Of a stretch of DNA of 64,000 nt, positions 1,607 to 14,268 are shown piece after piece. Both the position numbers and the translations under genes were made by a program. Every line of letters starts with the position of its first letter. Within the stretch, counting starts at the first letter, position 1. Source of the stretch: a virus; IMG/VR virus record IMGVR_UViG_3300012928_000001, positions 1-64,000 of that record. One strand, written 5' to 3'. Under the pieces are notes generated by a model. The model was not told the DNA's origin. It did not search any database and saw only the letters and a list, made by a program, of their open reading frames with translations.

Positions 1607-2028
1607 GCTCAGCGGGGACAAGGCGATCACGATCATGGAAGTGCACACCCGCGGCTACACTTCGGAGTCCTGGGAGTGGCGAGATCAGCTGCGCGATGAG
1701 GGCTGGATTTTTTACGACGGGTTTGACCGGCAGTTCAAACTGACCGAGCTTTCGCTCTCCATGCTCGACGGGATCGAGACCATCGCGGTGATCCGACTCG
1801 ACGATCTGCGCGCCCGCGATGGCCCCTTGGACGAAAAAGGGCGAGCCCGCTTTGCGGGCTTCTACGGTGGGTAGCGCGTTCAGCGCTTGTCAAGCAAGAT
1901 CGTACCTGGCACGCCAGGACGATCTTTTTTCGATTTTTGCCAGAAAAGCGCTTGCACAGCCTGCACAACTTCGAGTAAGGTTCTTTCACCGGGCGAGAGA
2001 GACCGCCCGCAAGAAAGCAGACAGAACG

Positions 2029-3189
2029 ATGACCACCGACTCCAAGCTCACCGCCACCGCCCCCAACTTCACCAAGATCGACGACGTCTACTACTGCGCC
2101 GACGCCTACCGCATCGAGCCCTACTACACCAAATCGGGCAAGATCGGCGGTCGCAACCTCTTCGCCCTCACCGACGGCAAGGTCGCCCACGTGGGTTGGT
2201 ACCGCCGGCTCTCTCACGCCAAGACCGCGGCGCACACGCACTGGGTCAACGCTGGCTCGCCCGCCATCGACTTTGACATGCCCGTCAAGATCATCACGGA
2301 GATGACCCCGGTCGACCCCGAGCGCGAGGGCTGGGGCGCCGTGTCCAAGCGCGAGGGCTTGGGCATCGGCCCCGCGAGCACCGGCGACACGATCGAGCTG
2401 CTCACCCCCGCCCCGACCCCCGAGACCGACGAGGAGATTCTGGCCCGGCTCACCGCCCGCTTTGCCGCGATGTCCAACCTGGTCGACTGCATCATCACCG
2501 GGGCCGTTCGCTCCCTGATCATCACCGGCCCCGGCGGCGTCGGCAAAACCTACCCCACTGAGGCCGCCTGTCACGAAGCCATCGACGCCGGGGTGCTCCC
2601 CGCCTTTCAAAAGGTCTCGGGCACCATCTCCGCGAGCAAGCTCTTTCAGGCCCTGCACAACGTCAAGGATGGTGGCGTCCTACTGCTCGACGACGCCGAT
2701 CGGATTTTCGAGGACATCGACGCGCTGAACCTGCTCAAGGCCGCGCTCGACACGTCCAAGGTGCGCACCATCTCGTGGCTGAAAAACTCTAAGTGGCTCG
2801 AAAACGAGGGCATCCCGGCTCAGTTCAACTTTGACGGACAGGTCATTTTCATCAGTAACATCGACTTCCGCCGCGAGCAGTCGCGGACCACGAAGATCGC
2901 CCCCCACCTGAAAGCGCTCGTGAGCCGCTCGCTACTCCTCGACTTGGAAATGTCGAGCCAGCGTGACCTGCTCGTGCGGATCGAAGACATGGTCATCAAT
3001 CAAGGGATGCTCGATGACATGGGAGTCGACAAGGACGGCGCCCGCGAGATCGTCGACTTCATGAAAAAGCACGCCGATAGCTTCCACTCCCTGACCTTGC
3101 GCGAGGCGGTGAAGATCGCCCAGCTGCGCAACGCGGCTCCCTCGTTCTGGTGCGAGATGGCCATGAACACCGTCGCCGGCAAGCGCTAG
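2029..3189 (+). CDS. AAA+ family ATPase
   Basis: Walker A GPGGVGKT, Walker B LLLDDAD, sensor-like FISN, SR motif; start set at the ATG right after class-1 copy 1. Confidence 0.85.
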   Translation: MTTDSKLTATAPNFTKIDDVYYCADAYRIEPYYTKSGKIGGRNLFALTDGKVAHVGWYRRLSHAKTAAHTHWVNAGSPAIDFDMPVKIITEMTPVDPEREGWGAVSKREGLGIGPASTGDTIELLTPAPTPETDEEILARLTARFAAMSNLVDCIITGAVRSLIITGPGGVGKTYPTEAACHEAIDAGVLPAFQKVSGTISASKLFQALHNVKDGGVLLLDDADRIFEDIDALNLLKAALDTSKVRTISWLKNSKWLENEGIPAQFNFDGQVIFISNIDFRREQSRTTKIAPHLKALVSRSLLLDLEMSSQRDLLVRIEDMVINQGMLDDMGVDKDGAREIVDFMKKHADSFHSLTLREAVKIAQLRNAAPSFWCEMAMNTVAGKR

Positions 3190-3218
3190 CACCCACGGGG
3201 AGGGCCCAGCCCTCCCCC

Positions 3219-3277
3219 GGCGTCCGCCCCTGTTGCCGGGGCGCTGACGAGGGCCCGCAAGGCAGGGCCGAAACGCC
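3219..3277 (+). ncRNA. Hammerhead ribozyme, type III (copy A)
   Basis: GGCGUC^ / stem I CGCCCC:GGGGCG / CUGACGA / stem II GGCCC:GGGCC / GAAA / stem III GGCGU:ACGCC; predicted cleavage after C3224. Confidence 0.9.
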
Positions 3278-3291
3278 AAAGGAGAGAGACC

Positions 3292-3498
3292 ATGTCCCGC
3301 AACCGCAATCACGATCAGTCTTCCCCCCGAGCCCGAGCAAAGACCCGCGCCATGATGCGCAAGGCGTGGCGAGCCCGCCGCGAGGCCAAGCGAGCCCGCG
3401 CGGCCGGCCACAACTTCGACGCGGCGCAAGCCGAGATCCGGGCCGCCAAGCTCGACCCCGACGGCGCCCCGACCTTGCTCCCCGCTCCCGCGATCTGA
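3292..3498 (+). CDS. Small basic hypothetical protein downstream of hammerhead A
   Basis: AAGGAG upstream of ATG; 68 aa, Arg/Ala-rich. Confidence 0.6.
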   Translation: MSRNRNHDQSSPRARAKTRAMMRKAWRARREAKRARAAGHNFDAAQAEIRAAKLDPDGAPTLLPAPAI

Positions 3499-3543
3499 CA
3501 CGATCGTCTGTGACTCGCACCCGTGTTTGGCCTACGGTAACGC

Positions 3544-4461
3544 ATGACGCAACCGAACGCATGGACATGGGGCGGGCTCGAAGTTCACTACACAAAGGAC
3601 AACTTGCCCGGCGTGCTCCTGAACGCACTCGCGGTCAAGATCCAGATCAACGCGAGCACGCTCCGCGGGCGATGGCGACGAAGCTTCGCCGCGACGGATG
3701 ACAGCTTGCCGACCGAGTCCAAGACGCCATATCGCACCGTCGTGACCGAGTCGATCGCCGAGACGATCGCCACGGAGTACAACACCGACAACCCCAAGAT
3801 CGCGGCGAGCTTGCGATCGTTGGCCCGCGACCTGTCGGGCCTGTCCGTCATCGCCAAAGCGGGGGTCCAAGTCCCGCCGATCCAAGCCCCGCCGATCCAA
3901 GCCCCGCCGGCCGTGCCCCCGCTCCCCGGCGAGCCCAAGGTCGACCCCTTCGAGCCGGGGCCAACCCCCAGCTTCGATCCCCTCCCGCCTATCGACCGCT
4001 TGGGCCGGCTCCCGCGTCTCTCGCCCGGCCTCCCCCCGGTGCTTCGGACCACGCTCAAAGACACGCTCCGCGAGCTGCTCGCCGAGATGCTGCCCGAGGC
4101 CCTGCACCGCGCCGTGCACGGCCTGAGCGTGAACCTGGGAGACGACGATCTCGGGACGCTCCGGCGGATCGTCCGTGAAGAGCTCGCCGCCGCCCACGGC
4201 CTCGCGGACTACCCCGCCTGGGTGATCGAGGCCGAGCCCCGGTACATCGCGGGCGAGCTCGGGACCTACGCCGCGATCGCGTCCGCCTACGCCGTGCCGC
4301 TCGTCGACGTCGAGGAAGTCGGGCGCGCCCGCTCGTGGCACCGCCGGCAGACCGAGCACGCCCGCGCCAAGCTGGCCGAGGCCCACGCCCGCGCCCGCAA
4401 GGCCGCCGCCGAGACCCCGGCGCCCAAGCCCGCCCCCGGCGTCACCATCGGGCGCTCATGA
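3544..4461 (+). CDS. Putative DNA-binding protein with Pro-rich linker and C-terminal TerS-like HTH
   Basis: C-terminal PAWVIEAEPRYIAGEL...SWHRR matches the HTH region of 18193..19062; starts directly after a class-2 promoter. Confidence 0.5.
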   Translation: MTQPNAWTWGGLEVHYTKDNLPGVLLNALAVKIQINASTLRGRWRRSFAATDDSLPTESKTPYRTVVTESIAETIATEYNTDNPKIAASLRSLARDLSGLSVIAKAGVQVPPIQAPPIQAPPAVPPLPGEPKVDPFEPGPTPSFDPLPPIDRLGRLPRLSPGLPPVLRTTLKDTLRELLAEMLPEALHRAVHGLSVNLGDDDLGTLRRIVREELAAAHGLADYPAWVIEAEPRYIAGELGTYAAIASAYAVPLVDVEEVGRARSWHRRQTEHARAKLAEAHARARKAAAETPAPKPAPGVTIGRS

Positions 4462-4946
4462 GCTTGCGAGGGAAGCTCGAAGCGCTTGCGCGGGTGCTCC
4501 CCCGTCGACAGGTACACGTCGACGGGGAGCTTTACCTTGACCGCTATTACCTGTGGGGCCGGCCGCCCAATCAGGATGGGTGGGATGGGTTGATCGTCCC
4601 GCGCTTGCGCTTGCTCCCGACGGCCTACCTGCATCACTTCCATCGCCCCGACGGTGATCGGCTTTGCCACAATCACCCGTGGCACGCGATGGGCCGAGTC
4701 CTCGCCGGCCACTACACAGAGCAGCGCTATGCAGGGCATCCCGCCGATGGTGTGCCTACTGGGTTGATCAAGCGCGAGCCGGGAGAGTGGTACGGGATCA
4801 CGCCGGACACCTTCCATCGCCTCGCCCGAGTCAGCGAGGGCGGCGCGTGGACCCTGTTCATCATCATCGGGGACAAGCTCCAGTCGTGGGGCTACTGGGA
4901 TCCGGTCGGAAAGTTGTTCATCCCGTGGCGCGAGCGCTGCCACTGA
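4458..4946 (+). CDS. Cupin-like phage protein
   Basis: YLDRYYL...YLHHFHRPD...HNHPW...GHYTE...FHRL...WTLF...WGYW, a His-rich cupin-type pattern. Confidence 0.6.
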   Translation: MSLRGKLEALARVLPRRQVHVDGELYLDRYYLWGRPPNQDGWDGLIVPRLRLLPTAYLHHFHRPDGDRLCHNHPWHAMGRVLAGHYTEQRYAGHPADGVPTGLIKREPGEWYGITPDTFHRLARVSEGGAWTLFIIIGDKLQSWGYWDPVGKLFIPWRERCH

Positions 4947-7517: not shown

Positions 7518-7545
7518 GCCCGCTCCGGGGCCCACGAGGGCCCCA

Positions 7546-7601
7546 CCCGTCCGACCCCTACCGCTGGGGCGCTGATGATGGCCCAGCAAGGCCGAAACGG
7601 G
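7546..7601 (+). ncRNA. Hammerhead ribozyme, type III (copy B)
   Basis: CCCGUC^ / stem I CG(A)CCCC:GGGGCG / CUGAUGA(U) / stem II GGCC:GGCC / GAAA / stem III CCCGU:ACGGG; predicted cleavage after C7551. Confidence 0.88.
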
Positions 7602-7616
7602 AAAGCAGGCAAGATC

Positions 7617-7823
7617 ATGACCACCACCGAGACTGTAATCGTCGTCACCTACGCGAATGGAGCGTCCAGCGCGTACCGCTCCCCCGAGACCATGCGCGAG
7701 TGGGCGGCCGACGCGGACCCGATCAACGCCCAAGCGTTCCGCACGATGGCCGACATGATTGATAGCGCCGCGTTGTCGGGCTCCGCGGGGGGCTTTCGCT
7801 TCCGCGTGATGCGCGTGCGCTAA
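7617..7823 (+). CDS. Early array hypothetical protein downstream of hammerhead B
   Basis: Leader GAAAGCAGGCAAGATC-ATG is a variant of the class-1 translation-initiation region. Confidence 0.7.
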   Translation: MTTTETVIVVTYANGASSAYRSPETMREWAADADPINAQAFRTMADMIDSAALSGSAGGFRFRVMRVR

Positions 7824-12974: not shown

Positions 12975-14268
12975 TACTCACCCGAGCTTCGCTATCGTGG
13001 CGGTCCGCGTGACCGCGTCGGAAGCATCAATCATCCAAGACTTACTGGCCCAACGTGGCAAGGATTTTGAACCGCTCGCGCGCAAGTTCGCCGCTGCAAT
13101 GACGCAGTGCATTTTCACTCGCGCCATGGATCGGGACTATCACAACGGACTCGACGAGCGCCGCAAATGGCTTGTCCGTGTCCCGCTGGACAGCAACCGC
13201 AAGCCCGGTGATTTCGTGAACGTCTCGCGCCGAGACTCCACTACATCATCGGTCAAGCTCGGTCCCATGATCCGCAAGGGCCACCGCTACGCCTACCACA
13301 CCACGGACCGCAAGCGAGCCGAGGGCGAGCCCAAGGCCGAACGGAAATACCGCTACTCGGAAGTGTGACTCACGCCCCCATTCGGCCTACAGAGAGATAC
13401 CTCCAATGACCGCTCACCACTACACGCCCGATCCCTCGATCCTCATCATCACCGGCCCGCAGTTCCGAAAGCAGACACGCGCCGAGCAGGTCGCCCAGTA
13501 TGACGCACAGTTGCGATTCATCATGGAGGCCATCGCCAACACTCCGACCACGCCGACAAAGCCCACCGACGTGATCGAGATCCGCGTGCTACTCACGCGG
13601 AAGCTCTTCACCGCCGTGCATGACGTGCTGAATCGGAACGGGTGGGAAGTCCACGAGGGCGAGCCCAACCCCGCGGGTCACCGCGGTGACGGTACATGGC
13701 CGATCATGCTGCGCCCGTCGATCGTGCGCGGGCCCAGCACGCGCACACAGCCCGTAGACACCGTCGAGAGCCCGCCGGCCGGCTGGGCGCCGCCCCCCGA
13801 CTGGATCCGCACTCGGGACGAAGCGCGCGCCCGTCTCGTGGCCGCCACGGAGGGCGAGGAATGAGCGGCGCGTGTCAGGCCTACTACGCCCCGATCACCA
13901 TCGGACCGCGTACCGGCGTGGTCATCGTGAGCGCCCCCGACAAGCCCACCGCGCGGCGCATGATCGCGGAGCACGTGCGGGATAACGTGCCCATTGAATC
14001 GCGCTACATCTCAGGCAAAGGTCTCTACATGGGGCCCAGCATGAACGCGATCCAACCCGTCAACGGCGACCCCGGTAAAGTCGTCTACTTCGATTCGGGG
14101 GTGTCCTGATGAGCCTCGCCGACGCCAAAGTGGGGGACCAGCTTGTCTGGGTTGCTGGGTTCCGCCGCCATCGCACAATCGTCACGGTCACTCGCGTCAC
14201 GGCCACACAGATCATCGTCGGGACGCGCAACAGGGTAGACCGGATCCGCAAGCGCAACGGTAGCGTCA

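Follow-up and report, generated by a model that had tools for sequence, protein, structure and literature searches.

The stretch of DNA analyzed here (the window, 64 kb long) is the first part of a phage record of 105,163 bp, which has direct terminal repeats and a G+C content of 64% and comes from marine metagenomes. The sequencing runs listed for this sequence were two marine metagenome DNA runs, which may be its source, and no RNA run. Near the start of the window, a gene for an AAA-type ATPase is followed by a gene for a 68-aa basic orphan protein, and the junction between them holds an element, hereafter copy A, that an earlier note had read as a type III hammerhead ribozyme. We found both neighbors as that note had described them, the ATPase gene (phrog_1250) on the 5′ side and the 68-aa basic ORF on the 3′ side, as well as a second element of the same kind, copy B, between a 66-aa ORF and another 68-aa ORF. 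The features of the two junctions are as follows, R1 being a covariance model described below.

2029–3189, plus strand: AAA-type ATPase gene, phrog_1250; stop codon TAG at 3187–3189; probable start ATG 2029, not 1819
3197–3217, plus strand: 9-bp GC hairpin with a 3-nt loop, read from the sequence (z = −4.4), without a U-tract
3219–3223 with 3273–3277, plus strand: helix III of copy A, 5 bp; the 5′ strand includes U16.1 (3223), paired with A15.1 (3273)
3224, plus strand: C17, with the predicted cut between 3224 and 3225 (from the sequence, the R1 alignment and hammerhead numbering)
3225–3243, plus strand: helix I, 6 bp (3225–3230 with 3238–3243), and the 7-nt loop I (sequence and covariation)
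3244–3250, plus strand: core box C3–A9 (CUGACGA), read from the sequence
3251, plus strand: extra G between A9 and G10.1, aligned at the insertion column of the family
3252–3269, plus strand: helix II, 5 bp (3252–3256 with 3265–3269, G10.1–C11.1 first), and the 8-nt loop II
3270–3277, plus strand: G12, A13, A14 and A15.1 (GAAA, 3270–3273) and the helix III 3′ strand (3274–3277)
3279–3284, plus strand: Shine-Dalgarno sequence AAGGAG, 7 nt 5′ of the ATG, read from the sequence
3292–3498, plus strand: 68-aa basic orphan protein gene downstream of copy A
7527–7544, plus strand: 7-bp GC hairpin with a 4-nt loop, upstream of copy B
7546–7601, plus strand: copy B, type III hammerhead (24.1 bits with RF00008, 60.1 bits with R1)
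7551, 7572–7578, 7579 and 7594–7597, plus strand: C17, core box, extra U and GAAA of copy B
7617–7823, plus strand: 68-aa gene downstream of copy B, with a class-1 leader motif 5′ of it and without a promoter

Two junctions without a promoter in an early promoter array

The long ORF at 1819–3189 contains, inside its 5′ part, a class-1 promoter (1952) and a leader (1991–2028), and the homologues of the ATPase, which are 280–350 aa long, align solely with the C-terminal 56% of this ORF. Both the extent of the homologues and the position of the promoter support the view that the ATPase probably starts at ATG 2029, directly after the first promoter-leader unit. Its closest relatives are P0001 (58% identity) and P0004 (54%). 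A single-protein scan of IMG/VR with the ATPase returned no relatives, and the phage GenBank records yielded nothing beyond a weak ATPase match to Rhodobacter phage RcRudolph. A profile scan gave 80 ATPase loci at about 40% identity, none of which has a type III hammerhead adjoining the gene, and the ribozyme is therefore not linked to the ATPase family.

The promoter at 1952 is the first of 15 near-identical promoter-plus-leader units, all on the plus strand, that extend to 12149 and in which the promoter word and the pre-ATG motif are a near-constant 61–63 nt apart. A simple sigma-70 consensus scan calls none of these 15 units. Most units are preceded by a T-run/A-run palindrome. Both hammerheads lie inside this early array, at junctions that have no promoter; at the second of them, the conserved pre-ATG motif of the array follows copy B. 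A further promoter-less leader motif, at 13467, was discarded as a chance match, being located inside a coding frame.

We also asked whether the hairpin at 3197–3217 is an intrinsic terminator. It is followed by a C- and G-rich stretch with no U-tract, and a terminator scan neither called this hairpin nor found a terminator-like site at either ribozyme junction, while the same scan does call the hairpin-plus-T-run sites of two neighboring units (6618 and 8131). A setting with neither promoter nor terminator fits transcription reading through the junction, followed by cleavage.

On reading positions 2900–3600, we found the complete core and three stems described in the earlier note, in base-for-base agreement. 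Copy A carries every base that defines the hammerhead core (C3–A9, G12–A14, A15.1–U16.1, and a base other than G at position 17), and its topology is that of type III, with helix III open and helices I and II closed by loops. The one extra nucleotide that the note had placed between CUGANGA and stem II is G3251. The 9-bp GC hairpin just 5′ of the cut is likewise present; it ends 7 nt 5′ of the predicted cleavage site and is a candidate 3′-end cap for the upstream cleavage product.

When the whole 105-kb genome was scanned on both strands with a type III descriptor, the site of copy A (3219–3277) was the sole match. CUGANGA occurs 35 times in the genome and is followed by a helix II and GAAA in two cases, copy A and position 7572, which belongs to copy B. 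The latter has a helix II of 4 bp and one bulged A (7554) in helix I. Aligned with each other, the two copies agree in the core, in helix I and at the beginning of helix II, while in helix III both strands differ at the outer two pairs, a compensatory change; the loops and the upstream hairpin differ, with their pairing kept. Both copies share one layout: a stop codon, 7–9 nt, the hairpin, 1 nt, the ribozyme, 14–15 nt (14 nt in copy A and 15 nt in copy B, counted after helix III) and the ATG.

A hammerhead family with a nucleotide inserted after A9

The earlier note had proposed the Rfam Hammerhead_3 model (RF00008) as a check, and on this point the identification was not borne out. No Rfam family reaches its gathering score anywhere in the window, and no hammerhead family was reported on positions 3100–3400 (copy A) even at E ≤ 10; the matches obtained there at that threshold, to mir-3188, a CRISPR repeat and a Burkholderia sRNA, are weak and unrelated, and we rejected them as chance matches in GC-rich hairpins. 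Searched against the whole genome, RF00008 has no match. In a 201-nt search, it aligns copy B over all 54 model positions with the extra U shown as an insertion, at 24.1 bits (E 0.0034), far below its gathering threshold of 48.5 bits. At E ≤ 0.1, the Rfam hammerhead models likewise miss clear relatives in other contigs (described next), suggesting that the failure reflects the models more than the motif.

An exact 31-mer of copy A has no match in IMG/VR. We searched with a pattern in which the core box and GAAAC enclose a single unspecified base and a helix II of 4 bp, while helices I and III are left free; since its template was the core and helix II found in the window, the members of the family have about 19 positions in common by construction. 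This pattern matches at least 119 loci in IMG/VR and at least 120 prokaryotic loci from many phyla, and the prokaryotic matches listed include several further type III members in Alphaproteobacteria. Among the 128 IMG/VR matches listed, 122 have a complete hammerhead architecture that the pattern does not demand: 95 with helix III closed and helix I open and 27 of type III, the other 6 being unclear. Type III members were chosen by at least 4 pairs in helix I and at least 2 pairs in helix III; the 6-bp helices observed and the success rate of 122 out of 128 are well beyond what this filter selects. At the insertion site, 19 of the first 25 type III members have U, 4 have A and 2 have G, and most relatives among the matches listed are located 10–35 nt upstream of a start codon.

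We then examined whether the helices are conserved as base pairs. In an alignment of 23 sequences (A3), all four types of Watson–Crick pair occur at most positions of helices I and III, and doubly changed cells number 105, compared with 36 ± 5 after shuffling; the covariation score reaches 0.597, compared with 0.07–0.13 when the partners are slid. These values cover helices I and III, helix II being fixed by the search pattern. For an independent test, 18 type III sequences from other viral contigs, with the window excluded, were used to build a covariance model, R1. R1 aligns copy A (3217–3279) at 60.2 bits (E 2.7e-16, model positions 1–61 of 61) and copy B (7544–7603) over its full length at 60.1 bits (E about 3e-16), of which about 38 bits come from the roughly 19 positions fixed by the pattern and the remainder from the GUC, helices I and III and loop I. 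These are the sole matches in the genome, the next best being a 10.9-bit fragment. In 151 genomes of the order of Martelella, R1 has a match solely in the genome that had supplied a known member.

The two hairpin loops are constrained as well. The note had suggested a tertiary contact between loop I and loop II based on their complementarity in copy A, where loop I has two 4-nt Watson–Crick complements within loop II. Of 36 unique type III members, 23 have in loop II a perfect complement to the final 3 nt of loop I, compared with 6.5 ± 2.1 after permutation of the partners, and an earlier test with 25 members gave the same answer. Moreover, the base at the end of loop I and the one just 5′ of GCA in loop II change together (U-A in 10 members, C-G in 7, including copy A, and G-C in 1). 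The covariation supports the contact, and the predicted register in copy A that it supports is 3234–3237 with 3261–3264, in the C-G class. Base-paired loop contacts have been described for all three hammerhead types (PMC3088659).

The closest relatives of copy A among the matches listed are L243, L217 and L244, whose helix I has the same sequence; in L243, the inserted base is likewise G, and a hairpin directly adjoins the ribozyme on its 5′ side. As a feature of the whole family, the upstream hairpin is not significant: it abuts the ribozyme in about 9 of 25 members (Wilcoxon P = 0.10). The proteins encoded on the contigs L243, L217 and L098, which carry the most similar ribozymes, have no similarity to those of the source genome. 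The ribozyme being shared and the proteins not, the element either travels between unrelated phages or is very old.

Several relatives lie in loci with more than one ribozyme. The 45-kb viral contig L243 has two type III hammerheads 800 nt apart, at 2181 and 2993, with U in one and G in the other at the insertion site and with loop pairs of different classes (U-A vs. C-G). In L091, a type III hammerhead (3899–3958) and a type II hammerhead recognized by Rfam (4701–4768, 45.5 bits) are separated by 750 nt; the insertion after A9 is of two bases in the type II copy. On the phage contig L093, a stretch of 3.5 kb is dense in ribozymes, with two hammerheads, two twister-sister ribozymes (88 and 79 bits) and a sub-threshold RAGATH-5 match (44.5 bits); the coordinates of these elements are 193–245, 957–1041, 1253–1336, 3309–3338 and 3605–3634. 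L093 also belongs, with L088, L144 and about 90 other IMG/VR loci listed, to a large class in which helix I is open, A9 is followed by an extra U, and loop II is complementary to the tail that follows helix I; for this class, Rfam reports nothing at the gathering score or at E ≤ 0.1.

Predicted cleavage at copy A and its possible functions

The second copy, the natural family with its insertion, the covariation and the 60-bit score of an independent model all uphold the type III identity that had been proposed for copy A. As judged from sequence comparison, positions 3219–3277 are a genuine type III hammerhead, belonging to a widespread phage and prophage subfamily marked by the insertion after A9 and a Watson–Crick loop contact, and would probably cut a two-gene transcript into separate messages. 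According to this model, the ATPase and the small basic protein would be co-transcribed from the class-1 promoter near 1952. Hairpins I and II would form first during transcription, helix III and the loop contact would then close the core, and the RNA would cut itself after C3224. The upstream mRNA would end in a 2′,3′-cyclic phosphate 7 nt past the 9-bp GC hairpin, and the downstream mRNA would begin 67 nt upstream of the ATG with a 5′-OH whose nucleotide is immediately paired in helix I. The hairpin may in this way protect the upstream 3′ end, and the two mRNAs may be stabilized separately, as the earlier note had proposed, given that terminal hairpins slow exonucleases and that a 5′-OH does not stimulate RNases that depend on the 5′ end. 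Copy B may act likewise for a second two-gene unit.

A somewhat unlikely alternative is that the RNA does cleave, but that the main role of the cut is not to stabilize two mRNAs: it could instead tune translation, destabilize one of the products, or mark the boundary of a gene cassette. The 3′ strand of helix III ends 1 nt before the Shine-Dalgarno sequence and could be freed beside the ribosome-binding site, in line with the clustering of the listed relatives just 5′ of start codons. Self-cleavage enables translation in some RNA viruses (PMC13725137), the 5′-OH product of Bacillus glmS is degraded rather than protected (PMC6765202), and hammerheads flank variable small genes in prophages (PMC3088659). 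However, the hairpin-capped ends that both products would have fit stabilization, and the ribosome-binding site is unpaired in the hammerhead fold and in the minimum free energy (MFE) fold alike, so that cleavage is not needed to expose it.

Another alternative, which we regard as unlikely, accepts copy A as a true descendant of the family but holds that it is weak or inactive, either a relic or a slow or conditional cutter, such that most transcripts stay bicistronic. The MFE structure of copy A is a rod in which loop I is base-paired to loop II and to part of helix II, and it is more stable by 4.8 kcal/mol than the hammerhead fold, for which −28.4 kcal/mol is predicted; the corresponding gap is 3.2 kcal/mol for copy B and 0–3 kcal/mol for most relatives, which makes copy A the second-worst of 25 members. 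In addition, the inserted base is a G: in the ribozyme of chrysanthemum chlorotic mottle viroid (CChMVd), which tolerates an extra base here, activity reportedly rose with a U at this site and was strongly impaired by a G or a C (PMC3705267). Because of the G insertion and the competing fold, copy A may be slower than copy B. It also has no Rfam score, and according to Perreault et al. some genomic hammerheads may be non-functional (PMC3088659). Against a loss of activity, the core bases, the three helices and the covarying loop contact are all intact, while an unselected relic would be expected to have lost some of them, and a G at this site is also found in other natural members (L098, L243 and two of type I). 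Furthermore, hairpins I and II should form first during transcription, since they are local and GC-rich.

Finally, it is extremely improbable that copy A lacks ribozyme ancestry and is a set of intergenic GC-rich hairpins, for example of a terminator or attenuator, that resembles a hammerhead by chance; copy B, the helix covariation and the R1 score effectively refute this reading. In its favor, the genome is rich in G+C, copy A has no Rfam hit and, the scan spanning very many windows, a lone rare motif could be an accident. Against it, 3 permissive matches arose in a simulation of 453 genomes by a second-order Markov chain, in none of which the helices reach 6, 5 and 4 bp, copy B shares both the layout and the unusual insertion of copy A, and the hairpin has no U-tract. 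The comparative evidence (copy B, the family and the covariation) removes the worry about a lone accident.

Known hammerheads and the possible meaning of the array

Hammerheads of types I and III were described in bacterial intergenic regions in 2010–2011, together with prophage clusters that flank small variable genes (PMC6155905, PMC3088659). Clustered phage hammerheads cleave in vitro (three clusters) and, for one, in E. coli, and in a halovirus, a 5′ end has been mapped near a hammerhead located 13 nt before the start of an early gene (PMC3088659). According to the standard, unproven proposal, ribozymes of this kind divide polycistronic RNA into fragments that differ in stability or translatability (PMC6765202). 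The ribozyme kind found here is thus already known in phages, and both the hammerheads and the processing idea date from 2011.

The phage and prophage clusters of Perreault et al. 2011 (PMC3088659), including the ardA triple of Agrobacterium tumefaciens and the HHphage hammerheads of the haloviruses HF1/HF2, are the nearest published counterparts that we compared. They occupy the same intergenic position in polycistronic transcripts, often just 5′ of the start codon, and likewise combine several copies per element, a Watson–Crick (pseudoknot-type) contact between helices I and II, and a proposed cutting of long transcripts to mRNAs of gene length. Compared by description, the copies in the window differ in that they replace a terminator-promoter-leader module in a regular array, an arrangement of which we found no description in the literature. 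Separately, L281 (Martelella mangrovi, NZ_JBEPLY010000011.1; G001:C11:115442-117827) has four R1 matches in 2.4 kb on one strand, by an ArdA-like gene, which recalls the published Agrobacterium triple hammerhead around ardA.

The viroid, satellite and eukaryotic hammerheads of RF00008, such as that of sTRSV, have the same topology, core and GUC cleavage site as the copies in the window. They differ from them by lacking the nucleotide inserted after A9, and the Watson–Crick loops seen here contrast with the non-canonical loop-loop motif of viroids (PMC2632901). The insertion itself has precedents: the CChMVd (+) hammerhead, with its extra A10, tolerates an additional nucleotide between A9 and G10.1, as here (De la Pena and Flores 2001, via PMC3705267), and an extra nucleotide at this place is conserved in the hammerheads of Penelope-like elements (PMC4209133). 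However, these cases concern a viroid RNA and a eukaryotic retroelement rather than phages, and the phage family mostly has U, with G in copy A. Twister and other ribozymes occur in the same neighborhoods of bacterial and phage operons and have a similar suggested role in polycistronic processing, but their folds are unrelated (PMC6765202); neither twister nor any other Rfam self-cleaving ribozyme is present in the window at the gathering score.

The blindness of Rfam to this subfamily is a useful side result. Its hammerhead models do not report the abundant class with an insertion after A9, whether of type III or with stem I open, and annotation pipelines therefore probably undercount phage hammerheads.

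The array, in turn, provides a convenient test case, given that published accounts call the function of hammerheads in bacteria and phages largely elusive (PMC6765202, PMC6155905). The two ribozymes fill a slot that is held elsewhere by near-identical promoter-leader units. We tentatively propose, as a possibility that falls short of likely, that the hammerhead module (hairpin, ribozyme and ribosome-binding site) is a stand-in for the terminator-promoter-leader module of the 15-unit array, such that each early gene would have its own mRNA, produced by initiation or by self-cleavage, with a hairpin at both ends, and that copy A would be a slower, tunable cutter setting the ratio of bicistronic to monocistronic mRNA. 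As the ribozymes lie in the promoter-leader slot, cleaved and promoter-initiated mRNAs would be directly comparable, and if the stand-in reading is true, this locus would be a natural side-by-side experiment on the purpose of phage hammerheads.
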